Sequence record: KJ190158
Reading direction: 5' to 3' (one strand)
Source: Escherichia phage FFH2
DNA length: 64,000 nucleotides
Both the position numbers and the translations under genes were made by a program. Each line of letters begins with the position of its first letter. The first letter of the stretch is position 1. The notes under the pieces were generated by a model that did no database searches, had not been told where the DNA came from, and was given only the letters and a program-made list of their open reading frames with translations. This document shows positions 5,100 to 20,519 of this stretch, in pieces.

Positions 5100-6082
5100 T
5101 GCTAAAACTGTGCACTGCAAAGATCATTGCTGACAGCATTTCCGAGAAAGGTAAGCGTATCACCACTTTTGAACTAGAGTATCCTCGAATTATTCACTCA
5201 GAGCTTATGACGCACCGAGTATTCAGCCGAAACGCCATGTCTTCCCGTGCAGTGCCTGTCGGCAAGATGCTGCAGCAGATTGTGGAGAATCCGGCAATGC
5301 CAGTTCGCTTCGGTGTAAATAAGCGAGGGATGGAAGATGGTGGGGAACACGATCAAAAGATCCGTGTAGAGTACACTGACATGGAGCTAACCCCTGAAGA
5401 GTTTTGGAAAGAAGCTGCAAAAAACGCCGCTTGGCATGCAGAGAAGTTCGCCCTTGCTGGTTACCATAAACAAGTATGTAACCGCTTAGTGGAGCCGTTT
5501 CAGCGCATGAAAACAGTTGTAACAAGCACAGAGTGGAATAATTTTTTCCATCTCCGTTGCTGGCACGATGCGGATCCTACGATTCAGATGTTGGCTAATT
5601 GTATGTGGGAAGCTCTTGTGAATAGCACTCCTGAAATCCTTAAACCAGGTCAATGGCACACTCCATATGTAGAGCACGTTTATTTGGACGGAGAGTTTAA
5701 CTACGCTGTACGTGACACAGAAGGAAAGCTCTGCATTCTTGATACTAAAGAAGCTCTGTCTATTAGTGCTAGTTGCTGTGCACAAGTATCTTATCGAAAT
5801 ATTGACAGCACGTTTGAAAAGGCAGACAGTGTGGCTAAAAAATTGATTGGTGGGGATCGTATTCATGCAAGCCCTTACGAACACCAGGCAACACCTATGG
5901 ATCATGATAACGCAATGGAACGTTTAAACTACTACCTATCTTCATGTGAAATCACACAAGACATTAGTACTTGGCAGGAAGGTGTAACCCATCAAGACCG
6001 TGATGGTAAATTCTGGTCTGCCAACTTTTGTGGGTGGGTTCAGCACAGACAACTGCTTAATAACCACTTCGTGAAAGGTTAA
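5099..6082 (+). CDS. thyX: FAD-dependent thymidylate synthase ThyX
   Basis: HSELMTHRVFSRNAMSSRAVP matches the ThyX signature RHRxxSxxxxSxR. AAGGAG SD upstream. Confidence 0.9.
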   Translation: MLKLCTAKIIADSISEKGKRITTFELEYPRIIHSELMTHRVFSRNAMSSRAVPVGKMLQQIVENPAMPVRFGVNKRGMEDGGEHDQKIRVEYTDMELTPEEFWKEAAKNAAWHAEKFALAGYHKQVCNRLVEPFQRMKTVVTSTEWNNFFHLRCWHDADPTIQMLANCMWEALVNSTPEILKPGQWHTPYVEHVYLDGEFNYAVRDTEGKLCILDTKEALSISASCCAQVSYRNIDSTFEKADSVAKKLIGGDRIHASPYEHQATPMDHDNAMERLNYYLSSCEITQDISTWQEGVTHQDRDGKFWSANFCGWVQHRQLLNNHFVKG

Positions 6083-6111
6083 TCCTATCACAGCGATAGG
6101 TAACTTTTGTG

Positions 6112-6140
6112 TTGACTAATAGTATCAGATAATCTATAAT
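6112..6140 (+). promoter_or_regulatory. sigma70-type promoter
   Basis: TTGACT-17 nt-TATAAT. A GGCTCAC...GTGAGCC hairpin (6144-6164) follows, then an SD and ATG 6181. Confidence 0.7.
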
Positions 6141-6180
6141 AATGGCTCACTTTGTTGGTGAGCCAGAAATGGAGACAGAT

Positions 6181-6642
6181 ATGAGTAATGTTATGATTCC
6201 TAAAAAGACATTTATTTCAGTTACTTTAGATTTCCTAGCTACCGTCCCTGGGTTTAACGTTCGCACACGAAACGGTCTCCGAGCTGCACTCTTCGCCGTA
6301 GGGTTTGATTTAAAAAATATTGATGTTCTTCGTGGAAAAAACGTTAGATGCAAAAATAAGCCAACCCATTATCGAAAGGCAGATGTATTTGCTGGTGTCA
6401 TGCGTGCAGACTTTAGATACCCACAAATGTATAACGGTGTAGATATTTTAGATGTAGATAAAGCACCTGGTGAGGCAATGCTTGTTCAAGATCTTCCGTA
6501 TGATATCCCTGTAGAGGATCGTGTTAATGTAAGAAAGTATACAAAACAATCTGAAAAGGCTGAAGATATTCATATTGTTGATGAACCTTTCAATTTTGAA
6601 GATCTGCATCGCCTAGAAAAATTATTCGGTATTGAAAGCTAA
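6181..6642 (+). CDS. hypothetical protein
   Basis: The start is set at ATG 6181 (GGAGACAGAT upstream). The longer ORF from 6142 would begin at the predicted transcription start and run through the 5' hairpin. Confidence 0.55.
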   Translation: MSNVMIPKKTFISVTLDFLATVPGFNVRTRNGLRAALFAVGFDLKNIDVLRGKNVRCKNKPTHYRKADVFAGVMRADFRYPQMYNGVDILDVDKAPGEAMLVQDLPYDIPVEDRVNVRKYTKQSEKAEDIHIVDEPFNFEDLHRLEKLFGIES

Positions 6643-6883: not shown

Positions 6884-9195
6884 TCACCAAGGTAATTAAA
6901 AGCAACGGATGTGAAGTGGCATTCGATCCAGAACGTTTAAATAAGGCAGCTATTTTCGGTGACGACGGTAACGGCAATTGGTCACACATTGCACTGGATG
7001 CATACAAACGACTGTATGATGGATGTACAACCAAAGAAGTTAACCAAGCTATCATAGACTCCTGTGTTAGCCGTAAAGACGAAGCACATTCCCGTATGGC
7101 TGGTCGTGTTCTTATTGGTCAGATTTATAAAGAGGCTTTTGGAGGGTTTACAAAGATCCCTTCCTTACCATCATTCTACAATACCATGGTTGAGAAAGGG
7201 TATTGGGAGGATATGGGCTATAGCTTTACCGAGCTAAACACTTTAGACGCTGTTATTGACCACAGTAAAGATCTCGGTTATGGCTATGCAGTCCTTAAAC
7301 AGTTTCGCGACAAATACGGGATCAAGGATACTCTTAAAGACACCTTGTTTGAATCTCCCCAGATGATGTTTATGGGGATAGCAATGGCTGTCATGAAGAA
7401 TATGCCGAAAGAACGTCGTATCAACGATGTTGTAAAATTATACACTTATCTGTCCGACTTAAAGATCAATGCCCCGACACCGTACTTAAACGGGCTGCGC
7501 ACAGGTAAGACAGGGTATGCATCTTGTTGTGTAATAAAAGCTGATGATACAGCAAAATCTATTGGTGTGGCACGTGAAGTTGCGTACACAATGACGGTTA
7601 ACCAAGCAGGTATCGGCTACTATTTATCATCAAGATCTGCAGGCGATGGTGTTCGTGGTAACACTATTAAACACATGGGTAAGATTCCATATTATCGAGG
7701 TATTGATGCTGGGGTTAAGGAGAACAGACAACAATCACGTGGCGGTTCTGCAACAGTATCATTCCTTGCACTAGACCCGCAGATTGATGAGCTAATCCGT
7801 TTGAGAAACCCTATGACTGTTGCTTCAAAAAGAATCAACACCATGGACTACTCTATAGGTATTAATAGGTCGTTTATCAACCGTGTGGCTAAGAATTTAG
7901 ATTGGATGCTTGTTTCTTATAAGCACGCGCCTCAACTGCATGAAGGTATCTTCACCATGTCTATGGAGGAGTTTGATGCAGAGGTTGATCGTATCGCTAA
8001 AGATGACAGTATTCCTAAAACATGGATCCGAGCTAGAGATCTTGCTGTTGAACTGCTCACGCAGCGTATTGAGGTTGGAAGGCTGTTCGTATACTGGACA
8101 GACGAGATGAATAGACATACACCTTTTAAAGATGTGATCTATTCAAGTAACCTGTGTGCAGAAATAGCCCTCCCGACAAAAGGCTATTCAGATATGCGTA
8201 ATATCTTCAAGCACGATGTTGATGATGGCGAAGTTGCATTGTGCTTCCTGTCATCACTTGTAGCTGGAAGGGTTACCCCAGAGGAGTATGAGGATGTTGC
8301 ATATTACACGGTGCTTATGATTGACAATGTTATGGAAATCATGACATATCCGTATGAAAATATGGAGAGCACTGTTAAAAAACGCAGATCCATCGGAGTT
8401 GGCCTTACCAATGTTGCACATTTTATTGCCAGCCACAAGGTTACTTACGGATCTCCTGAAAGTAAACAGCTTGTTCACGATCTTGCAGAACTTCACAGCT
8501 ACAGCTTGCATAAGGCAAGTTTACGGTTGGCAAAAGAGCGTGGTGTCTGCGAGTGGATGCATAAAACAAAATATCCAGAAGGTTGGTTACCAATCGACAC
8601 CTATAACAAAGAGGTCGATAGCGTGGTGAAAGATCCTTCTCTTAAACAGGATTGGGAAGGGTTACGTAAAGAAATCATTGAAAATGGTGGGCTACGTAAT
8701 AGCGTTCTTGAAGCATATATGCCTAATGAAAGCTCTTCGCTGGCAACAAACACCACTAATGGGGTTTATCCTGTCCGTGAGCACATTATCTTTAAAAAAT
8801 CGCCACAAGGGCAGGTGCTGTTTATCGTTCCTGACTATGATGAGTTGAAAGAGTATTACACCTCGGCTTGGGACGTTGATACTAACGACATGATCGATAT
8901 GTATGCTGTGATTCAAAAATTCACAGGTCAGGCAATCAGCGCGGATTTATACATAGACTACACCAAGTTGAAAGATGGTAAAATTTCAATGAAGGAGCAG
9001 CTAGGGTATCTTATCCGTGCCACTAAATTCGGGATGAAGACATGGTATTATTTAAACTCCAGGGTTGGTGCTGGTGACTCCTTGGCAGAGGAACTTCATG
9101 CCAAGAAACAGGCTGAAGATGAAACCAGAAAGAACTATCCTTTGATTGCAGATAGTTCAGTTGAAGATCCGTATTGCGAAAGTTGTGCACTATAA
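6880..9195 (+). CDS. nrdA: Class Ia ribonucleotide reductase large subunit
   Basis: N-terminal ATP cone (VIKSNGCEVAFDPERLNKA), active-site SNLCAEIALPT, and a C-terminal redox tail CESCAL. TTG start with a GAGGAAG SD. Confidence 0.95.
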   Translation: MITKVIKSNGCEVAFDPERLNKAAIFGDDGNGNWSHIALDAYKRLYDGCTTKEVNQAIIDSCVSRKDEAHSRMAGRVLIGQIYKEAFGGFTKIPSLPSFYNTMVEKGYWEDMGYSFTELNTLDAVIDHSKDLGYGYAVLKQFRDKYGIKDTLKDTLFESPQMMFMGIAMAVMKNMPKERRINDVVKLYTYLSDLKINAPTPYLNGLRTGKTGYASCCVIKADDTAKSIGVAREVAYTMTVNQAGIGYYLSSRSAGDGVRGNTIKHMGKIPYYRGIDAGVKENRQQSRGGSATVSFLALDPQIDELIRLRNPMTVASKRINTMDYSIGINRSFINRVAKNLDWMLVSYKHAPQLHEGIFTMSMEEFDAEVDRIAKDDSIPKTWIRARDLAVELLTQRIEVGRLFVYWTDEMNRHTPFKDVIYSSNLCAEIALPTKGYSDMRNIFKHDVDDGEVALCFLSSLVAGRVTPEEYEDVAYYTVLMIDNVMEIMTYPYENMESTVKKRRSIGVGLTNVAHFIASHKVTYGSPESKQLVHDLAELHSYSLHKASLRLAKERGVCEWMHKTKYPEGWLPIDTYNKEVDSVVKDPSLKQDWEGLRKEIIENGGLRNSVLEAYMPNESSSLATNTTNGVYPVREHIIFKKSPQGQVLFIVPDYDELKEYYTSAWDVDTNDMIDMYAVIQKFTGQAISADLYIDYTKLKDGKISMKEQLGYLIRATKFGMKTWYYLNSRVGAGDSLAEELHAKKQAEDETRKNYPLIADSSVEDPYCESCAL

Positions 9196-9234
9196 TTTTA
9201 AAGGGGCTTCGGCCCCATTTTAGAGGTTAGAATA

Positions 9235-10323
9235 ATGGCTGTATTTAATGCTGAGAACACCGCTCATAAAACTGGTGACTATCCGCTGTTTCTAGGACAG
9301 CAAATGGGTATGTACGACTCTATCAACAAAAAATATCCACAACTGTTTGAACTATACAAAAAACAAAAAGAACAAGACTGGGCAGAGGATGAAGTGGATT
9401 TGTCGCAATCTATTTCAGATTTTGTAACATGCTCCAAGTCAACTTATGATGTGATGGTGCAGACCTTGATGTGGCAATGGGAGGCTGATAGCGTTGCGGC
9501 AAGATCGATCATCTGCCTCTTTTCACCATTCATCACTAATAGTGAGCTTTTCACTCTATTGATGAAACAGTCAGAGATTGAAGTTCTTCACGCACTAACT
9601 TACTCAGAGATTGTTAGACAATGCCTCCCCAATGCCCGTGAGATTATAGAAGAGATTCAGGAAAACCAAAACGTTCTGAGCAGATCTGGCGTTATTGTCA
9701 AATACATGCAAGAGCTTGAGGTTATTGGTGCAAAATACCGACTGGATCCTTCTAGTGTTAAAGAAGATATTGTGCGGAAATGCATTCTTAGAGCGCTTTT
9801 TGCACTTTTAGCCCTGGAAAGTATTGAGTTTATTGCAAGTTTTGCATGCACTTTCGCAGTAGCTGAACAGGGTATTTTTGTTCAGGTGGCGCAGCTTGTT
9901 CAAAAAATCATGCTTGACGAAATGCTACACTCGAAAGGTGATTTTGCCATCATTGATATCCTGCTTAATGATCCGGCATGGGAGAAAAGCTTCCTTGAGA
10001 TAAAAGGGGAGTTAAAAGAGATTCTTGATGAAGTACGAACCAAAGAGTACGGTTGGAGTGACTATATTTTCAGCGAAGGAAGAGCGATTATAGGTCTTAA
10101 CTCACCGTTGCTTAAAGAATGGGTTGACTATAACTGCTCACCAATTTATGATTACTATGGCATCGACAAAGACTTTGTGCCGCCAACAAAGGACCCTCTA
10201 CCGTTTATGCAGGTGTGGATGAAACCTTCATTGCAACAGACGGCGAACCAAGAAATGTCGAACACTGACTACCGCGTCAACACAACTGTTAACGACGCTG
10301 AAGAAGAAATTTGGGAGTTTTAA
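9235..10323 (+). CDS. nrdB: Class Ia ribonucleotide reductase small subunit
   Basis: Ferritin-like R2 with E-x-x-H iron-ligand motifs (EIEVLHALTYSE, LDEMLHSKGD). The acidic-aromatic C terminus EEEIWEF is typical of the R1-docking tail. Adjacent to nrdA. Confidence 0.9.
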   Translation: MAVFNAENTAHKTGDYPLFLGQQMGMYDSINKKYPQLFELYKKQKEQDWAEDEVDLSQSISDFVTCSKSTYDVMVQTLMWQWEADSVAARSIICLFSPFITNSELFTLLMKQSEIEVLHALTYSEIVRQCLPNAREIIEEIQENQNVLSRSGVIVKYMQELEVIGAKYRLDPSSVKEDIVRKCILRALFALLALESIEFIASFACTFAVAEQGIFVQVAQLVQKIMLDEMLHSKGDFAIIDILLNDPAWEKSFLEIKGELKEILDEVRTKEYGWSDYIFSEGRAIIGLNSPLLKEWVDYNCSPIYDYYGIDKDFVPPTKDPLPFMQVWMKPSLQQTANQEMSNTDYRVNTTVNDAEEEIWEF

Positions 10324-10326
10324 TAT

Positions 10327-10605
10327 ATGAGCTGTGAAAAATCTTTTTTCTTTATTATTTACGGTAAAGATAACTGCCCACATTGTGTAAGAGCAAAAGA
10401 ATTTGCAGTCAGTAAGGGTCTGCCTTTTGTATATAAGACACTTGGCGAGGGTTACACAAAAGAAGAGCTTATTGAGAAGTGCAGTCCAATCGTACCCAGA
10501 ACGTTGCCGCAGATCTTCTTAGAAAGTAATCTTGAAAGTGTCCATATAGGCGGTGCCGACGATTTCATCTCTTTTGTTAAAAATGGTTTTGGAGAGAAAA
10601 AGTGA
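10327..10605 (+). CDS. Glutaredoxin/NrdC-like redoxin
   Basis: YGKDNCPHCVRAKEF has a CPHC active site. TLPQIF...IGG is the glutaredoxin-fold cis-Pro and GG region. The gene sits between nrdB and nrdD. Confidence 0.8.
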   Translation: MSCEKSFFFIIYGKDNCPHCVRAKEFAVSKGLPFVYKTLGEGYTKEELIEKCSPIVPRTLPQIFLESNLESVHIGGADDFISFVKNGFGEKK

Positions 10606-11462
10606 AAGTTGTAAAACGGGACGGTAGAGAAGAGTTCTATAACGGAATTAAGGTGATCAAGGCGGCAGAGTCCGCCTTACTTGAGTCTGGACATACTGAA
10701 GAAGAAGCTTACCGGATCGCCTGCGCGGTTAATGAAGTTGTTGCTAACAATCTACCAACCGACCAGTGCACGATCTCTGTAAAAAATATCCATATCCTTG
10801 TTGAAGACGCTCTTATGGATATGGGTTTAAAATGTGCAGCCAGAGAATACATCCAGTATAGGCAGACAAGAGATAATAACAGAGAGGCAGGTGGAAAACT
10901 GCTTGCAGATATTAGTGGCTTCTTGGATCGCACTTGTGATGAATTTACAAAAGAAAACGCAAATAAGCCTACCAATCATGTACACACTCATCGTGACCTG
11001 CTTGCAGGCATCCTTAGCAAACACCTTGCATCAACACAGATCCTGACAGACCGTGTCTCAGAAGAGCACAATAAAGGCTTCATCCATGTGCATGATCTTG
11101 ACTACTTGATCAGTCCGTTAACAAACTGTTGTTTGGTAAATTATCCAGATATGTTGGAAAACGGATTCAACATTGGTAACGCCCATGTCAGTAAGCCGAA
11201 GTCAATAGGGGTTGCAACAACAATCCTTAGCCAAATCTCTAGTGCAGTAGCTAGTGCTCAATATGGAGGTCAGACTATGAGCCATATTGATCATTATCTG
11301 GCACAGTATGCTGAAGCGACCTATGAGAAGAACCTTAAATTTTGCCAGGAACATTGGTTGCCAGATGCTGAGACTGTTGCAATGCAAATGACAGATAAAG
11401 ACGTATTTGACAGCATGCAGACTTTGCTCTATCAAATCAATACGTTAACCTCTGTCAACGGT
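10602..11462 (+). CDS. nrdD: Anaerobic ribonucleoside-triphosphate reductase, exon 1
   Basis: ATP cone (KVVKRDGREEFYN) and colinearity with E. coli NrdD up to ...YQINTLTSVNG (E. coli ...YEVNTLHTANG). The frame hits a stop immediately after the proposed 5' splice site. Confidence 0.9.
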
Positions 11463-12260
11463 TAACAAACTGGCCGTTGTAAAACTCTCCTAACCTCATA
11501 AGAGGGGTCGGTAAATCCGGCTAACGGGGAACGCTAAGGCGAAAGCTATGCCAATCCCGTGACTAGTTCTTACAGGAGTTGGAACGGTTGTAACGACTAA
11601 CGAAAGGCAGAGATGCTTGACAAACATTTCTGAACCAAGTAGTGTAGAGGTTAGTTGAAATACTAACTTCGAAATGGAGAGGCTCTATGAAAAAGATCAT
11701 TCTTAATGGTGAAGAATCAAACTATGTGATTGATGAGGTTGGAAACGTATACGGAAAACGTGGAATGCTACACCCAATATTGTGGGGAGGTTATGGAAAA
11801 GGTAACAAGCATGTTAAACGCCGTTATATGTACTCTTTCAACCACAAAGGTAAAAAGATTCGAATCCAAACCTCAAGGATTGTTGCCTTGTATTGTTTGC
11901 CAGATGTCCCAGAAGACCCTGAAAACTGGGAAGTGAATCATAAAGACGGCAATACATTGAATGATCATCCGTCTAACCTAGAGTGGGTTTTGCCGGAAGA
12001 TAATAAGAGACATGCTTTCCGAACAGGGCTTTGCCCAGGCAAGTGCTATAGGAAAGTGCAGGCATACAAAGGGAAAACCTTGGTGGGTGAATATCCTTCA
12101 CTCTATGCCTGTGCAAAAGCCTTAAATTTGAACGTAGGTAACGTTCATAGGGCTATCGAAGGAAATGCCGAAGGTAAGCATCTCACAATAAAGGGTTATT
12201 ATCTTATTGAAGTAGAGTAAGAGATAGTCTGGCCCTGTGGAAACACAGGGGAGGAGACAG
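11463..12260 (+). mobile_element. Group I intron in nrdD carrying an HNH homing-endonuclease ORF
   Basis: The exon end CAACGGU can pair with the intron GCCGUUG (11475-11481) to form P1 with a U.G wobble at the splice site. The intron ends in G (12260). P7 candidates are GACUA (about 11565) and UAGUC (12225-12229). Joining 11462 to 12261 gives NTLTSVNG|QTPFITLSLGLDTS, matching E. coli NTLHTANGQTPFVTFGFGLGTS without a gap. Confidence 0.85.
11687..12220 (+). CDS. HNH homing endonuclease (intron-encoded)
   Basis: VNHKDGNTLNDHPSNLEWV is an HNH motif. A C-terminal NUMOD1-like HTH is present (YPSLYACAKALNLNVGNVHRAI). The ORF lies entirely inside the nrdD intron. Confidence 0.85.
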   Translation: MKKIILNGEESNYVIDEVGNVYGKRGMLHPILWGGYGKGNKHVKRRYMYSFNHKGKKIRIQTSRIVALYCLPDVPEDPENWEVNHKDGNTLNDHPSNLEWVLPEDNKRHAFRTGLCPGKCYRKVQAYKGKTLVGEYPSLYACAKALNLNVGNVHRAIEGNAEGKHLTIKGYYLIEVE

Positions 12261-13523
12261 CAGACTCCATTCATCACATTAAGTTTAGGACTGGATACCT
12301 CGGTCTTTGGTAGAATGATTACCAAAAATTACTTGAAAGTCCACAAAATGGGTCTTGGTGAAGAACGTATCACACCTGTGTTCCCTAAAGTGCTGTTCTT
12401 CCTAGAAGAGGGTGTCAACATGAACCCTGGAGATCCTAACTATGATTTGAAAAGATTGGCTCTGGAATGCTCTGCAGAGCGGATTTATCCTGACTTTGTT
12501 TCTGTTCCACTAAATCGTAAAGTGACAGGCTCGACAGATGGTAAAGTAACGAGCATGGGTTGCCGGAGTTTTCTTAGCAAATACAATGACTTGGAAACAG
12601 GCGAGGAGAAATACCTTGGCAGATTTAACTTAGGCGTTGTTAGCCTTAACCTGCCAATGATTGCGGCAAAAGCTAAAACGGAAGGTGTTGATTTCTTTGC
12701 AGTTCTTGACGAATACTTGGATCTTGCATACGAGGCTCACCTTGTAAGGGTTAACCGTCTAAAAGGAACAAAGGCAGGGCAGAACCCTATCATGTGGTGT
12801 GAAGGCGCTCTTGCTCGCCTGGATCCTGAAGAGAGTATTGATAAACTCTTCTATGACGGGTACGCTTCCATCAGTATTGGGTATATTGGTGTGTATGAAA
12901 CCTGTCAGATTTTGGGCAGAGAGGGTGACAAGGCTTTAGCTCTTGGAATCCTTCAGCACATGAAAGATGCTTGTGAGCGATATAAGAAGGAAAGTGGACT
13001 AGCATTTAGCTTGTACGGCACCCCTTCTGAGAGTTTATGCTATAAAGCTGCAACCTGTCTGGATCGTGAATATCCAGAAGTGTTGAAGCACGAGCATGAA
13101 TACCTCACCAACAGTTTCCATCAGCCAGTATGGATCAATAGTTCACCTTTTGATAAGTGGAAGTATGAAGAAGGTTTTGCTATGATCTCTTCTGGTGGCA
13201 ACATTGGATATATAGAGACACCTAACCTGAAAAACAACCTGGATGCTTTAGAGGCTCTTGTTGACTTCGGGTATAAACACATTATGTATTTTGGTATTAA
13301 CCAACCTGTGGATAAATGTCTCAAGTGTGGTTTCTCTGGTGAGTTCAGTGCAACAGCTAAAGGCTTTGTATGCCCAGAGTGTGGAAACCATGAAGAGGGA
13401 ACGATCAGTGTAATTCGACGTGTGTCCGGATACCTTTCCAGTCCTAACTCCCGTCCTTACAATAAAGGTAAGCAAGCGGAAGTTATCGAGCGAGTTAAGC
13501 ACTATGGAAGTTGTAGTTGCTGA
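12261..13523 (+). CDS. nrdD: Anaerobic ribonucleoside-triphosphate reductase, exon 2
   Basis: Colinear with the E. coli NrdD C-terminal half. It has a Zn ribbon (CLKCGFSGEF...CPECGN) and the glycyl-radical motif RRVSGYLS. Confidence 0.9.
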   Translation, partial: QTPFITLSLGLDTSVFGRMITKNYLKVHKMGLGEERITPVFPKVLFFLEEGVNMNPGDPNYDLKRLALECSAERIYPDFVSVPLNRKVTGSTDGKVTSMGCRSFLSKYNDLETGEEKYLGRFNLGVVSLNLPMIAAKAKTEGVDFFAVLDEYLDLAYEAHLVRVNRLKGTKAGQNPIMWCEGALARLDPEESIDKLFYDGYASISIGYIGVYETCQILGREGDKALALGILQHMKDACERYKKESGLAFSLYGTPSESLCYKAATCLDREYPEVLKHEHEYLTNSFHQPVWINSSPFDKWKYEEGFAMISSGGNIGYIETPNLKNNLDALEALVDFGYKHIMYFGINQPVDKCLKCGFSGEFSATAKGFVCPECGNHEEGTISVIRRVSGYLSSPNSRPYNKGKQAEVIERVKHYGSCSC

Positions 13524-14736: not shown

Positions 14737-15525
14737 ATGGGTCGAGCTAAAGAAACAAAACGCATGCGTGATGAAGCTAGAGAGGCTCGCAAATCTGATC
14801 GCCTGCGTAAGGCTGCTGAGAAATTTGCTGACGAAAGAGAGCACACTGCTCCAGCTCTCCGACCAATGAATAAGAAGCAGCAAAAGTATCTTGATTATCT
14901 AGGGTCACGTAAGATTATTATTGTAAACGGTGTGTTTGGATCCGGTAAGACGTTCATGGCATCTGCATATGCAGGTGATCTTCTGCGTAAGAACGAGATT
15001 GATAAGATCATTGTTGCACGTCCTTACGTTCAGACAGGAAAGACTTCAGGATTTAAACCTGGAAATGCAATGCAGAAACTGTGGCCCTATCTTCGAAGCA
15101 TGATGGACACGATTTGTCGTCGTGTTGGCAAAGGTGCTTTTGCCGCAATGCTGGGAGACGGTCAGAACAGCCGTATCGAGATTTGTGAGGTTGAAAGCAT
15201 TCGTGGTCGTAGTTTCGATGAGCGATGCTTTGTCCTGATTGACGAGGCACAGCAAACTAACCCTGAAGAAATGTTGTCAATTATCACAAGGATCTCTGAT
15301 CAGGCCACCCTTGTAATTATGGGCGATAATAGCCAACGTGACATCCCTGGTAAATCTGGCCTTGCATGGGTGACGGATTTCTTTACTCGTCATCCAGATC
15401 CTGAGGTTGGAATGATCAGCTTTGATAGTCCAGACGATGTTGTTCGTTCCGGGTTGGGTCGTCAGATTGCACTCAATCTTATTGAGGATCGTGCAAATCA
15501 TATTTGGACCCCTGTTTCCGAGTAA
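14737..15525 (+). CDS. phoH: PhoH-like ATPase
   Basis: Walker A (VNGVFGSGKTFMA), Walker B (FVLIDEAQQT) and IMGDNSQRDIP, typical of the PhoH family. Confidence 0.9.
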   Translation: MGRAKETKRMRDEAREARKSDRLRKAAEKFADEREHTAPALRPMNKKQQKYLDYLGSRKIIIVNGVFGSGKTFMASAYAGDLLRKNEIDKIIVARPYVQTGKTSGFKPGNAMQKLWPYLRSMMDTICRRVGKGAFAAMLGDGQNSRIEICEVESIRGRSFDERCFVLIDEAQQTNPEEMLSIITRISDQATLVIMGDNSQRDIPGKSGLAWVTDFFTRHPDPEVGMISFDSPDDVVRSGLGRQIALNLIEDRANHIWTPVSE

Positions 15526-15569: not shown

Positions 15570-15598
15570 TTGACAAACAGGTAAGATTTAGATATTAT
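15570..15598 (+). promoter_or_regulatory. sigma70-type promoter
   Basis: TTGACA-17 nt-TATTAT. An AGGGTGG...CCACCCT hairpin precedes it, after phoH. Confidence 0.6.
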
Positions 15599-15628: not shown

Positions 15629-15940
15629 ATGGCTACAATACAAGAGAGGCTGAATAAAATATACTGCCTGTTTGTCTATAACGGCGAGACAATTTTGGCA
15701 TATAAAGGATCCAAGAATGTATGGATCAAGGACAGTGGTGGTAATATAATCAACTTAGCGTTGCTACGTGAGCGCCGACACAGATTCTTTATCGAGTCTC
15801 GGATTATTGAAAGCAACACCTGCTACAGAACAGGCGATAAAGTGATTGTTGACAATGATACGTGGTATGTGGTAGACTGGCAATCATTGAGCTGTGATGC
15901 TTCTGACAATCGTAAGTATTCCCTAGTGATTGCTAAATAA
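15629..15940 (+). CDS. hypothetical protein
   Basis: 103-aa ORF with an AAGGAGAAGGAG SD. Confidence 0.6.
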   Translation: MATIQERLNKIYCLFVYNGETILAYKGSKNVWIKDSGGNIINLALLRERRHRFFIESRIIESNTCYRTGDKVIVDNDTWYVVDWQSLSCDASDNRKYSLVIAK

Positions 15941-16000
15941 AGGTAAATGTGAATCAGGTTTAAATAAATAGCTTTCAACTTCCAATATTAAGGATTTCTC

Positions 16001-17050
16001 ATGAATTTAACACCTCGCAGCACCATGGTACACGGCATGAAAGAAAAACAGAACGGTTTCGAACCTATGAGTAATAAAATGTTTGGTATGCCGGGTGGTA
16101 TTATGGAAACATACAGCTACCCAACACCTGTTGTTGACCACGTTCTTTATATCGACGATTTGGAAGACTTACAAGATCATATGTCTCGTCTGCAGACGAT
16201 CCGTATGGCTCAGCCGGAAGAAAGCATTCGGGTGATCATCAATAGCCCTGGGGGTTGCGTGCACATTGCAATGGCTTATCTGCAGGCATTCCGCGAGTCT
16301 CAGGCAAGCGTTGTTGCACATGCCGAAGGGATGTGTTGCTCTGCTGGAACAATCTTATGGCTTGGTTGCAAAGAACGTACTGTGGCTCCGGACACAGAAT
16401 TTATGTTCCACTACTATCAAGGTGGCACTTATGGTAACGGTGTGAACATGAATACTCAGGTCAGCTACTGGAAAAAACGTTTTGAACGCCTGATCGAAAA
16501 ATACTACGGTGGGGTGCTGACAGAAGATGAGATCGCATCCATCACAGCTGGTGGCGAAGTGTGGTTGGACGGAGAAGAGCTGGCAGCACGCACTGGAGCT
16601 ATTATTCTGGATGAAGGCAACATACAACGCATCCAGAACGGACAAAAACCGAAAAAGCTTCTGGCAAAAGGTGATGAGGAAGGCGTGTTAGGTGAAGCAG
16701 GTCTTCCGGAGATTCACCAGTGCACATCTTTAGATGAGTTAGTTCATGCTGTTGAATCTGCAAAAGCGGGCGGTTCGAAAGGTGATGTTCACACCGTGTT
16801 CCTGAACCTGCAGATGGAAAGTGGCGAGACCGTCAGAATTGCCCTGGGTGAAATTACTTCAGAAGATCTGCAGAGATTCTCTGTCGTTGAACTTCAGGAT
16901 ATTCTGTCTCAATTGAAGACTACTCTGAACGGCGGTGAAGAGGTTAAGGTGAAAGATAAGACTCGCAAGCGTCTGGTGGATAATATTATTAAAACAGCAA
17001 AAGAGCTCAATGAAAAAATCCTGGGTGCAGGAATTGTCGAAGAAGTTTAA
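16001..17050 (+). CDS. ClpP-family (S14) serine protease with a ~140-aa C-terminal extension
   Basis: VIINSPGGCV, GMCCSAGTILW (catalytic Ser context) and FMFHYYQGG (His) follow the ClpP order. The acidic, Lys-rich C-terminal region has no ClpP counterpart. Confidence 0.75.
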   Translation: MNLTPRSTMVHGMKEKQNGFEPMSNKMFGMPGGIMETYSYPTPVVDHVLYIDDLEDLQDHMSRLQTIRMAQPEESIRVIINSPGGCVHIAMAYLQAFRESQASVVAHAEGMCCSAGTILWLGCKERTVAPDTEFMFHYYQGGTYGNGVNMNTQVSYWKKRFERLIEKYYGGVLTEDEIASITAGGEVWLDGEELAARTGAIILDEGNIQRIQNGQKPKKLLAKGDEEGVLGEAGLPEIHQCTSLDELVHAVESAKAGGSKGDVHTVFLNLQMESGETVRIALGEITSEDLQRFSVVELQDILSQLKTTLNGGEEVKVKDKTRKRLVDNIIKTAKELNEKILGAGIVEEV

Positions 17051-17063
17051 ACATTAATTCTAA

Positions 17064-17086
17064 AGCCCTCTTCGGAGGGCTTTTAT
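17064..17086 (+). terminator. rho-independent terminator
   Basis: AGCCCTC-ttcg-GAGGGCT followed by TTT. Confidence 0.7.
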
Positions 17087-17101
17087 GATCTGGAGATTTG
17101 C

Positions 17102-17635
17102 ATGACTTGTGCTAGAAAACCTGATGAACAACGTAACGCCTACGATGAGTATGTGACACCGGAGTGGTGTGCAGAAGGGCTGTATGACCTTATTCCGTTC
17201 CCAGAAGACTGGACCTACTTAGAGCCTTGCAGGAATAGTGCCTCAGGTGTGTTCTACTCCCGTATGCCGTTAGGATCTGCATGGGGAGAAATCCAAGAAG
17301 GTGTTGACTATCTGAATACAGAATACAACCATGTTGACTGTATTATCACCAACCCACCATACAGCTTGGCTCGTGAGTTTGTAGACAAGGCGTTGAAAGA
17401 TGCTGACGTAGTTATTATGCTTTTACGTCTTAATTTTCTGGAAAGCAAAGCCAGATTTGAATGGTGGCTTGATAATGCACCTACCACTGTGATCACAATA
17501 TCTAAGCGTCCATCATTTCAATCAAATGGTAGAACTGACGGGCAAGCATATGCATATTTTGTATGGGACAAGAAAAACCGTCTAGACTTGCCGCCATTTA
17601 TGTGGTTGGCACCACCAGAGGCAGATTTGAAATGA
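17102..17635 (+). CDS. DNA N6-adenine methyltransferase (small, NPPY type)
   Basis: IITNPPYSLAREF is motif IV (NPPY). An upstream DEYVTPEW and LEPCRNSASGVF resemble the SAM pocket. Confidence 0.75.
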   Translation: MTCARKPDEQRNAYDEYVTPEWCAEGLYDLIPFPEDWTYLEPCRNSASGVFYSRMPLGSAWGEIQEGVDYLNTEYNHVDCIITNPPYSLAREFVDKALKDADVVIMLLRLNFLESKARFEWWLDNAPTTVITISKRPSFQSNGRTDGQAYAYFVWDKKNRLDLPPFMWLAPPEADLK

Positions 17636-19875: not shown

Positions 19876-20061
19876 ATGGCAAAAAATAAATCTTTAGAGC
19901 AGGCTGAAAACCTTCTCCACGAGCTGGTAAAGGAGTGGAAAGTTGAATACTCAGATTTTAATGCACGAGAGGGTGAAGATTATTGGCCTACGGAGCGCTC
20001 AGAGGGCGAATGGTATCAAGATTTTATAGAGTGGTTATATCAGACGTGCGATGAGGGGTGA
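19876..20061 (+). CDS. hypothetical acidic protein
   Basis: ATG 19876 is preceded by AAAGGAGA. Confidence 0.5.
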   Translation: MAKNKSLEQAENLLHELVKEWKVEYSDFNAREGEDYWPTERSEGEWYQDFIEWLYQTCDEG

Positions 20062-20063
20062 CG

Positions 20064-20519
20064 ATGTTTGTTAAATATGTAAAAACGTGCCTCAACAGTC
20101 TTGGCAGAGAGCATTGGTACACCTTACTTGAAAAAGGAGAAATTTTAACAAAATCTGGAAAGATAACTTTGATACCCTTGGACGATAAAGACCCGTCACT
20201 CCTTGTCATAGATGATTACGTTACAGGTGTGTCGTACGAGGTCTCTGTGGAGAGGTTAATACGCAGAGCTGGCGGCCCTTGTGATCAAAGAGAGTATGTT
20301 TTCGATTCCGTTACAGAGAGGGATCATCCGTCTTTAATGTTCAGGATGGTAATCAGGGATATGAGGTCATCTATAGATAGGATCGTAAAGGACATTAAGG
20401 AACCTTTTAGGGTAAAAGTTAAGAAGTTTTTTGATTCTAAGATTAACATACTTGCTGTTGTGCTAGGCGTAATTCAACTTCTGTTAATTTTGCACTATTT
20501 TGAACTGTTGTTTAAGTAG
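20064..20519 (+). CDS. hypothetical protein with C-terminal TM helix
   Basis: ATG 20064 is preceded by GAGGGG. The C terminus is hydrophobic (ILAVVLGVIQLLLILHYF). Confidence 0.55.
   Translation: MFVKYVKTCLNSLGREHWYTLLEKGEILTKSGKITLIPLDDKDPSLLVIDDYVTGVSYEVSVERLIRRAGGPCDQREYVFDSVTERDHPSLMFRMVIRDMRSSIDRIVKDIKEPFRVKVKKFFDSKINILAVVLGVIQLLLILHYFELLFK

Follow-up and report, generated by a model that had tools for sequence, protein, structure and literature searches.

A stand-alone ClpP-like protease gene in the nucleotide-metabolism region of rV5-type coliphages

Proteins of the ClpP fold are described from bacteria as ClpP (MEROPS S14; E. coli, e.g. PDB 1TYF/6WR2) and from phages as head-maturation proteases (NF045542; PHROGs 1684, 94, 2976 and 133; lambda gpC-type) and as stand-alone ClpP-like proteins (PHROGs 1827 and 5410). 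Here, we analyse the ClpP-like protease gene of Escherichia phage FFH2, which occupies positions 16001-17050 (plus strand, stop codon included) of a 64,000-nucleotide stretch of sequence record KJ190158 (hereafter the window) and encodes a product of 349 amino acids (aa). The window is a segment of a Vequintavirus (rV5-type coliphage), and the product is 100% identical to gp117/ORF122 of Escherichia phage rV5 (YP_002003619.1), annotated as 'ClpP ATP-dependent protease subunit'. Both the gene and its family are already known and annotated, as rV5 gp117 and as PHROG 5410/1827. The rV5 paper gives the ClpP-like gene solely in a supplementary table, and the literature that we searched contains no study of this phage protein family and assigns no function to any of its members.

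With bacterial ClpP, the phage protein shares the alpha/beta fold, the same order of NSPGG oxyanion loop, nucleophile Ser and general-base His, and the handle helix, whereas it is only ~20% identical and differs in a Glu at the position of the catalytic Asp, a polar docking pocket, the lack of the N-terminal loop and helix A, and a C-terminal extension of 134 aa. Phage head-maturation proteases are likewise ClpP-fold serine proteases, often with a C-terminal extension, and show profile similarity to the rV5 protein (E 1e-14 to 1e-22). Unlike these, the rV5 protein is encoded outside the head module behind an early/middle-type promoter, scores below the curated cutoff, was not found in virions and carries an unrelated C-terminal module. 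Its counterpart in the Vibrio phage ICP1, gp211, is 36% identical over the protease domain (E 3e-28), shares the nucleotide-metabolism location and the synteny with an upstream phoH gene, and also has a long acidic C-terminal extension, which is, however, not detectably homologous to the rV5-type module. The other stand-alone proteins of PHROGs 1827 and 5410 (KVP40-like, T5-like and N4-like phages, Pakpunavirus and Barbavirus) are mostly short proteins of about 180-260 aa without the rV5-type C-terminal module.

On balance, we favour with moderate confidence the reading that the FFH2 protein is a stand-alone, non-morphogenetic ClpP-fold serine peptidase of PHROG 5410, which would be made early or mid-infection, reside in the cytoplasm, dispense with canonical ClpX/ClpA docking and bear a C-terminal crown. 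Genes for stand-alone ClpP-like proteases are widespread among lytic phages, and the gene described here is cleanly separated from capsid maturation.

Family membership and active site

The product matches phrog_5410 with an E-value of 4.9e-155 (aa 24-345 on profile positions 4-322 of 323) and phrog_1827 with 2.6e-40, PHROG 5410 being the long form of PHROG 1827. Together, these two PHROGs make up a large, separately classified family of stand-alone phage ClpP-like proteins in the category 'other'. Furthermore, Pfam CLP_protease (PF00574) is matched at E 2.1e-12 (47.7 bits; cutoff 20.2). A tblastn search with the 349-aa protein yielded matches in 944 phage records, and a family profile search retrieved 1,809 cluster representatives at E <= 1e-10, which may include other ClpP-superfamily proteins; the family alignment used throughout comprises 188 members drawn from this exhaustive profile search. 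The initial annotation of the locus, made from the sequence alone, had held that the ClpP fold in phages is normally that of the prohead protease. Head-maturation relatives of ClpP do exist, but the generalisation does not extend to the large stand-alone family present in myoviruses and in T5-like, KVP40-like and N4-like phages.

Against the curated equivalog model TIGR00493 the product scores 33.2 bits (cutoff 308.6), and it likewise falls below the cutoffs of all other NCBIfam ClpP models. A recent capture of the host clpP gene was ruled out by the ~20% identity and by scores far below the equivalog cutoffs, and an NfeD- or SDH-type ClpP-class protease was rejected as the respective Pfam and NCBIfam matches are all sub-threshold. 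A link to defence or anti-defence was sought with PADLOC, which returned no match for the ClpP-like protease.

In an AlphaFold2 model based on an alignment of 13 family members, the N-terminal region (aa 1-45; 16001-16135, plus strand), which contains the invariant residues N25, Y40 and P41, is predicted to be disordered (predicted local distance difference test score, pLDDT, <50) and stands in place of the ClpP N-terminal loop and helix A. The ClpP-fold protease domain follows (aa 46-215; 16136-16645) and is modelled with a pLDDT of about 85-92; its top Foldseek matches are solved ClpPs, with target-normalised template modelling (TM) scores of 0.64-0.73 over 157-189 aligned columns. As initially reported, the motifs follow one another in the order NSPGG (aa 81-85), GMCCSAG (aa 110-116) and FHYY (aa 136-139). 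In the alignment to solved ClpPs, Ser114 (codon 16340-16342) corresponds to ClpP Ser97 and His137 (16409-16411) to His122, and Glu186 (16556-16558) lies at the Asp171 position. The identification as a ClpP-like protease is thus upheld by motifs, by Pfam and PHROG matches and by the superposition of Ser and His on the ClpP catalytic residues.

The charged extension of ~140 aa previously noted at the C-terminus comprises 134 aa (aa 216-349), of which 31% are charged, with a net charge of -6. It is not a mere charged tail: a variable linker (aa 216-266; 16646-16798, plus strand), mostly of low confidence or disordered and containing a single helix (aa 244-256), leads into a conserved, confidently modelled module (aa 267-342; 16799-17026) that consists of a beta-hairpin and two long helices and contains the invariant residues F293, E297 and R322. 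This module is specific to the family, and our searches returned no informative structural relatives for it and no similarity to scaffolds or capsid proteins.

The nucleophile Ser, the general-base His and the oxyanion-loop GG motif are all conserved in 188/188 relatives, a pattern expected only under selection for catalysis. The third triad position is unusual; 107 of the 188 relatives have D there, 43 have Q and 33 have E. This conservation, read from the alignment, indicates selection for catalytic activity. A catalytically weak or non-catalytic ClpP-fold protein that serves as a structural, regulatory or decoy factor would fit the lack of Asp at the third position, where rV5 has Glu and most other Vequintavirinae-type members have Gln, and also the Gly-Gly that replaces the 'oligomerisation sensor' Arg, a residue that adjoins the catalytic Asp in ClpP. 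Set against the universal retention of Ser, His and the oxyanion loop, this explanation appears very unlikely to us.

Head module, virion and timing of expression

The initial annotation had placed the gene in a nucleotide-metabolism region and not in a morphogenesis module, which holds, as no portal, capsid or scaffold gene lies nearby. It had also raised the possibility of a displaced prohead protease or protease-scaffold fusion acting in capsid maturation. Such a role could draw on the matches of the domain to head-maturation profiles (phrog_1684, E 8.7e-22; NF045542, E 2e-16) and on the C-terminal scaffold or capsid-targeting extensions that many ClpP-related head-maturation proteases carry. 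However, the match to NF045542 reaches 60.4 bits and stays below the curated cutoff of 120, the PHROG head-protease matches, phrog_1684 among them, are at least 130 orders of magnitude weaker than that to phrog_5410, and the C-terminal module is without scaffold similarity.

Examination of the portal and capsid context outside the window, which the initial annotation had proposed and which was carried out in rV5, revealed a full head module with its own prohead protease. This module is located at 53.4-60.9 kb of the rV5 genome, ~30 kb apart from the ClpP-like gene at 90.6 kb, and contains in order TerL (gp065), portal (gp064; Portal_Mu, phrog_113), gp063, scaffold (gp062), decoration protein (gp061) and major capsid protein (gp060), an order that is the same in ICP1. 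The rV5 ClpP-like gene has nrd, phoH and methyltransferase genes at its sides. Between portal and scaffold, gp063 (5883-6455 of the rV5 head-module segment, minus strand, outside the window) matches Pfam Peptidase_S78_2/XkdF (PF14550; E 1.1e-17, 64.6 bits, cutoff 24) and shows 40% identity to gp125 of ICP1, a 'capsid protease' (E 6e-19). Its homologues at >=95% identity are present in 116 records and are named 'prohead protease' by independent annotators. The adjacent gp062 is homologous to the ICP1 scaffold gp124 (E 2e-11), which has been shown experimentally to assemble coat protein into procapsid-like particles of phage size (PMC10002752). Like the ClpP-like protein, the XkdF-type enzyme (rV5 gp063/ICP1 gp125) is a protease of this phage type; unlike it, it belongs to an unrelated fold family (HK97/S78-like), is encoded in the late structural module at the canonical portal-protease-scaffold-capsid position and fills the prohead role.

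The RefSeq name of rV5 gp063 is 'DNA methyltransferase', as it is for the homologues in phAPEC8, Nernie and BME3. Given the Peptidase_S78_2 match, the position between portal and scaffold and the 40% identity to the ICP1 capsid protease, this name for the prohead protease is most likely an error passed on between records.

As evidence that would count against it, the initial annotation had named a genome with no other prohead protease together with processing of the ClpP-like protein into virions. What was found instead is gp063, and ORF122 is missing from the rV5 virion table obtained by multidimensional protein identification technology (MudPIT; PMC3606486), which comprises 19 loci.

The ClpP-like gene is preceded by a predicted sigma-70-type promoter-like site (TTGACA-17-TATTAT; 15570-15598, plus strand) with 11/12 consensus matches, and the rV5 record contains the annotation 'Sigma70-type promoter; P121' at the equivalent position. 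A small open reading frame (ORF) of 103 aa (15629-15940, plus strand; rV5 gp116/ORF121) lies between this site and the protease gene, and because the near-consensus promoter precedes the small ORF, this ORF is probably co-transcribed with the protease gene. The protease gene has its own Shine-Dalgarno sequence, as initially claimed, with AAGGA at 15990-15994 (plus strand) ending 6 nt before the ATG as read from the sequence. Its own terminator, also claimed, fared less uniformly. Downstream of the stop codon, a stable hairpin (17062-17083; free energy -14.7 kcal/mol, z -2.63) with a GC-rich stem of 9 bp (AAAGCCCTC/GAGGGCTTT) and a UUCG loop is overlapped at its 3' arm by the T-rich stretch GGGCTTTTAT, and the element as a whole (17062-17090, plus strand) is a plausible intrinsic terminator; on the other hand, the hairpin was not flagged by a consensus terminator scan, and no terminator after the ClpP-like gene is annotated in the rV5 record.

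From this arrangement, host RNA polymerase would transcribe the small ORF and the protease gene from the sigma-70 promoter and transcription would end at the hairpin after the stop codon. Transcription by the host enzyme would in turn imply synthesis early or mid-infection, and the protein would act in the cytoplasm of the infected cell and not in the procapsid. In ICP1, a nucleotide-metabolism subset within gp176-gp211 peaks mid-infection, although gp211 is not named individually. Late expression or association with proheads or virions is not indicated by the promoter type, by the mid-infection peak of the homologous ICP1 region or by the rV5 virion table, and homologues are located in the early regions of N4-like podophages. 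Since rV5 and its relatives carry a complete head module elsewhere, with an XkdF-type protease and a scaffold whose ICP1 homologue has been confirmed by experiment, the ClpP-like protein is not a displaced prohead protease, this phage type having a separate one, and any direct part of it in capsid maturation, whether as protease or as scaffold fusion, seems most improbable.

Unfoldase docking and the phoH gene

The initial annotation had suggested that the protein partners with or poisons host ClpX or ClpA. As an alternative core for host unfoldases, it would dock or sequester ClpX/ClpA or mix into host ClpP rings and thereby redirect or poison Clp proteolysis, a proposal in keeping with its ClpP fold with intact Ser and His, with database names that describe an ATP-dependent protease subunit and with the existence of hetero-oligomeric ClpP1P2 cores in bacteria. 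The sequence of the docking surface argues otherwise. In E. coli ClpAP, the IGL/IGF pocket is formed by A52, L48, F49 and F82 from one protomer and by L23, Y60, Y62, I90, M92, F112, L114 and L189 from its neighbour (bioRxiv 10.1101/820209). Around the pocket positions, the alignment runs without gaps and is kept in register by the NSPGG, Ser and His motifs. L23, L48, F49, A52, Y60 and Y62 correspond to a gap, Q65, T66, M69, R77 and I79 in the rV5 protein, and F82, I90, M92, F112, L114 and L189 to E99, H107, E109, T127, A129 and I202. Seven of the 12 positions are therefore polar or charged and one (L23, in helix A) is deleted, and the substitutes are mostly the commonest residues of the family at their positions, as for E99 (100/188), E109 (135/188) and H107 (81/188). 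Furthermore, nothing in the phage protein corresponds to the N-terminal axial loop and to helix A of ClpP; a gap in the alignment lies opposite helix A, and aa 1-45, predicted to be disordered, contain another conserved motif.

With neither the hydrophobic IGF/IGL pocket nor the N-terminal elements conserved, canonical docking of host ClpX or ClpA is unlikely as judged from the alignment, and the suggested partnership does not hold in its canonical form. The ClpP C-terminal strand is part of the apical pocket (bioRxiv 10.1101/820209), and the 134-aa extension would therefore leave the ring on the ATPase-docking face. Together with the ~20% identity to E. coli ClpP and a score far below the curated ClpP cutoff, these features make an alternative core for host unfoldases quite doubtful. 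The ClpP-like protein itself contains no ATPase domain. The designation 'ATP-dependent' is a name inherited from ClpP without sequence support, and given the loss of the ATPase-docking pocket, to call the protein an 'ATP-dependent Clp protease subunit' probably misleads.

For the stand-alone peptidase that we favour, these features are consistent with the following mode of action. The protein would assemble into rings that enclose the active sites, as in other ClpP-fold enzymes, and would not use the canonical ClpX/ClpA docking mechanism. Instead, the conserved C-terminal module could form a crown on the ATPase-docking face that selects or admits substrates, or that binds a phage or host partner. 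A 'proteolytic takeover factor', as the initial annotation put it, is a possible description. If the enzyme degrades specific host proteins, e.g. defence or stress factors, it would represent a new class of phage takeover effector.

Several points weigh against this interpretation. The argument from the pocket is based on an alignment of ~20% identity, and non-canonical binding of ClpX, ClpA or ClpP is possible. Catalysis could be reduced or altered by the Glu or Gln that takes the third place in the triad. The absence of ORF122 from the virion is a weak negative, as the proteome is shallow and several of its 19 loci were identified on poor peptides. Promoter and terminator are predictions from consensus or energy. 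As the C-terminal module lacks informative structural relatives, what we propose for it is purely inferential, and the searched literature offers no data on activity, oligomeric state, substrates, timing in rV5 or essentiality for this protein or its close homologues.

The genomic context of the family was compared across 16 hand-sampled loci from 12 lineages, scored uniformly with our own PhoH and protease hidden Markov models; the counts are raw and include shared ancestry. In all 16 loci, the ClpP-like gene is located among early, replication or nucleotide-metabolism genes, apart from the head genes. It follows a deoxynucleoside monophosphate kinase gene in T5-like phages, a dihydrofolate reductase gene in KVP40-like phages and nrdAB in an N4-like phage, and is found among small early ORFs in Pakpunavirus and in another N4-like phage. 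A phoH gene lies upstream on the same strand at a distance of <=1.5 kb in 8/16 loci representing 6/12 lineages. These are three genera of Vequintavirinae (rV5-type, 4MG and CR3), ICP1 (Mohonavirus), KIL3 (Flaumdravirus), Barba10A (Barbavirus), M1 (classified in Ounavirinae) and Bobbio (Otagovirus). In four loci (KIL3, Barba10A, M1 and Bobbio) the phoH and protease ORFs directly adjoin or overlap each other, an arrangement suggestive of translational coupling. The order phoH-protease-methyltransferase is also present in 4MG, CR3 and the Rheinheimera phage Barba10A, with a Dam methylase in the latter. The pairing could reflect either inherited synteny or functional coupling.

In Pseudomonas phage vB_PsaM_M1, a gene annotated as 'proteasome' is located ~3 kb downstream of the overlapping phoH/ClpP-like pair (8873-9397 of the sampled locus) and possibly encodes a second self-compartmentalising protease.

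Functional coupling could mean that the PhoH ATPase and the ClpP-like peptidase form an ATP-dependent degradation machine, or that they are two arms of one takeover pathway, e.g. RNA remodelling or decay plus proteolysis. Besides the pairing itself, with phoH directly upstream in half of the loci and ORFs in direct contact in four of them, this idea is encouraged by the loss of the pocket for the usual AAA+ partners from the protease and by Walker A and B residues that are invariant in the PhoH alignment. However, no phoH gene lies within 5-6 kb of the short-form homologues in N4-like, Pakpunavirus, T5-like, KVP40-like and jumbo phages, and one to three unrelated ORFs separate the two genes in rV5, 4MG, CR3 and ICP1. 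The lineages with the pair are all myoviruses that may be distantly related, so that the gene order could be inherited. In addition, PhoH-family proteins (PhoH2, YbeZ) are linked to RNA and not to protein unfolding. We regard such a PhoH-coupled system as unlikely. Somewhat less probable still is a more far-reaching version, in which phoH and the ClpP-like gene constitute a conserved two-gene module, often translationally coupled and present in >=6 lineages, whose protease has exchanged the docking pocket for another interface, and in which proteolysis during takeover is driven or targeted by PhoH or by a different phage factor that the C-terminal module binds. If this version were to prove true, it would provide a concrete biochemical partner for phage PhoH, the product of a very common but functionally unexplained gene. 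The recurrent pairing is therefore a testable lead, and the one that could raise interest in this locus.

Neighbouring genes and further observations

Both genes that the initial annotation had placed at the flanks of the protease gene were confirmed, with the correction that the 103-aa ORF intervenes between phoH and the protease gene. Upstream, the window encodes a phoH-like P-loop ATPase (14737-15525, plus strand; rV5 gp115) with matches to Pfam PhoH (3.6e-47) and phrog_170 (3.8e-75). Downstream, a DNA methyltransferase of the N6-adenine type with an NPPY motif (17102-17635, plus strand; rV5 gp118) matches phrog_799 (5.1e-67) and shows weak Pfam matches to EcoRI_methylase and Dam. The 103-aa ORF belongs to phrog_5456 (9.9e-39), a family of unknown function, and searches of Pfam, NCBIfam and PADLOC with its product were without match. 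In more distant relatives, its position is taken by other small ORFs, three in 4MG and CR3 and two in ICP1.

The region from 14700 to 17700 matches 121 phage records, mostly at 95-99% identity. Over these 3 kb, DNA identity to rV5 is 98.0%, and the protease protein is nonetheless 100% identical.

Further upstream, an HNH homing-endonuclease ORF (11687-12220) interrupts nrdD, of which the parts form ORFs at 10602-11465 and 12237-13523. The nrdD gene is intact in rV5, whereas slur16 and nomo share the HNH-interrupted form. As a known mobile insertion, the interrupted nrdD is common to ~35/120 related records.

On the other side of the locus, an ORF of 153 aa (20058-20519; rV5 ORF133/gp128) is annotated as 'virion structural protein'. 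Its mass spectrometric support in rV5 consists of two low-quality peptides, one of which is non-tryptic and the other, 'LLLIL', derives from the hydrophobic C-terminal segment. The structural assignment of rV5 ORF133/gp128 looks weak.

Finally, ~19 GenBank records of 'Campylobacter phage' (MG0656xx; host Campylobacter jejuni) are ~98% identical to E. coli rV5-type phages in this region, which points to wrong host labels or to coliphage contamination in that dataset.

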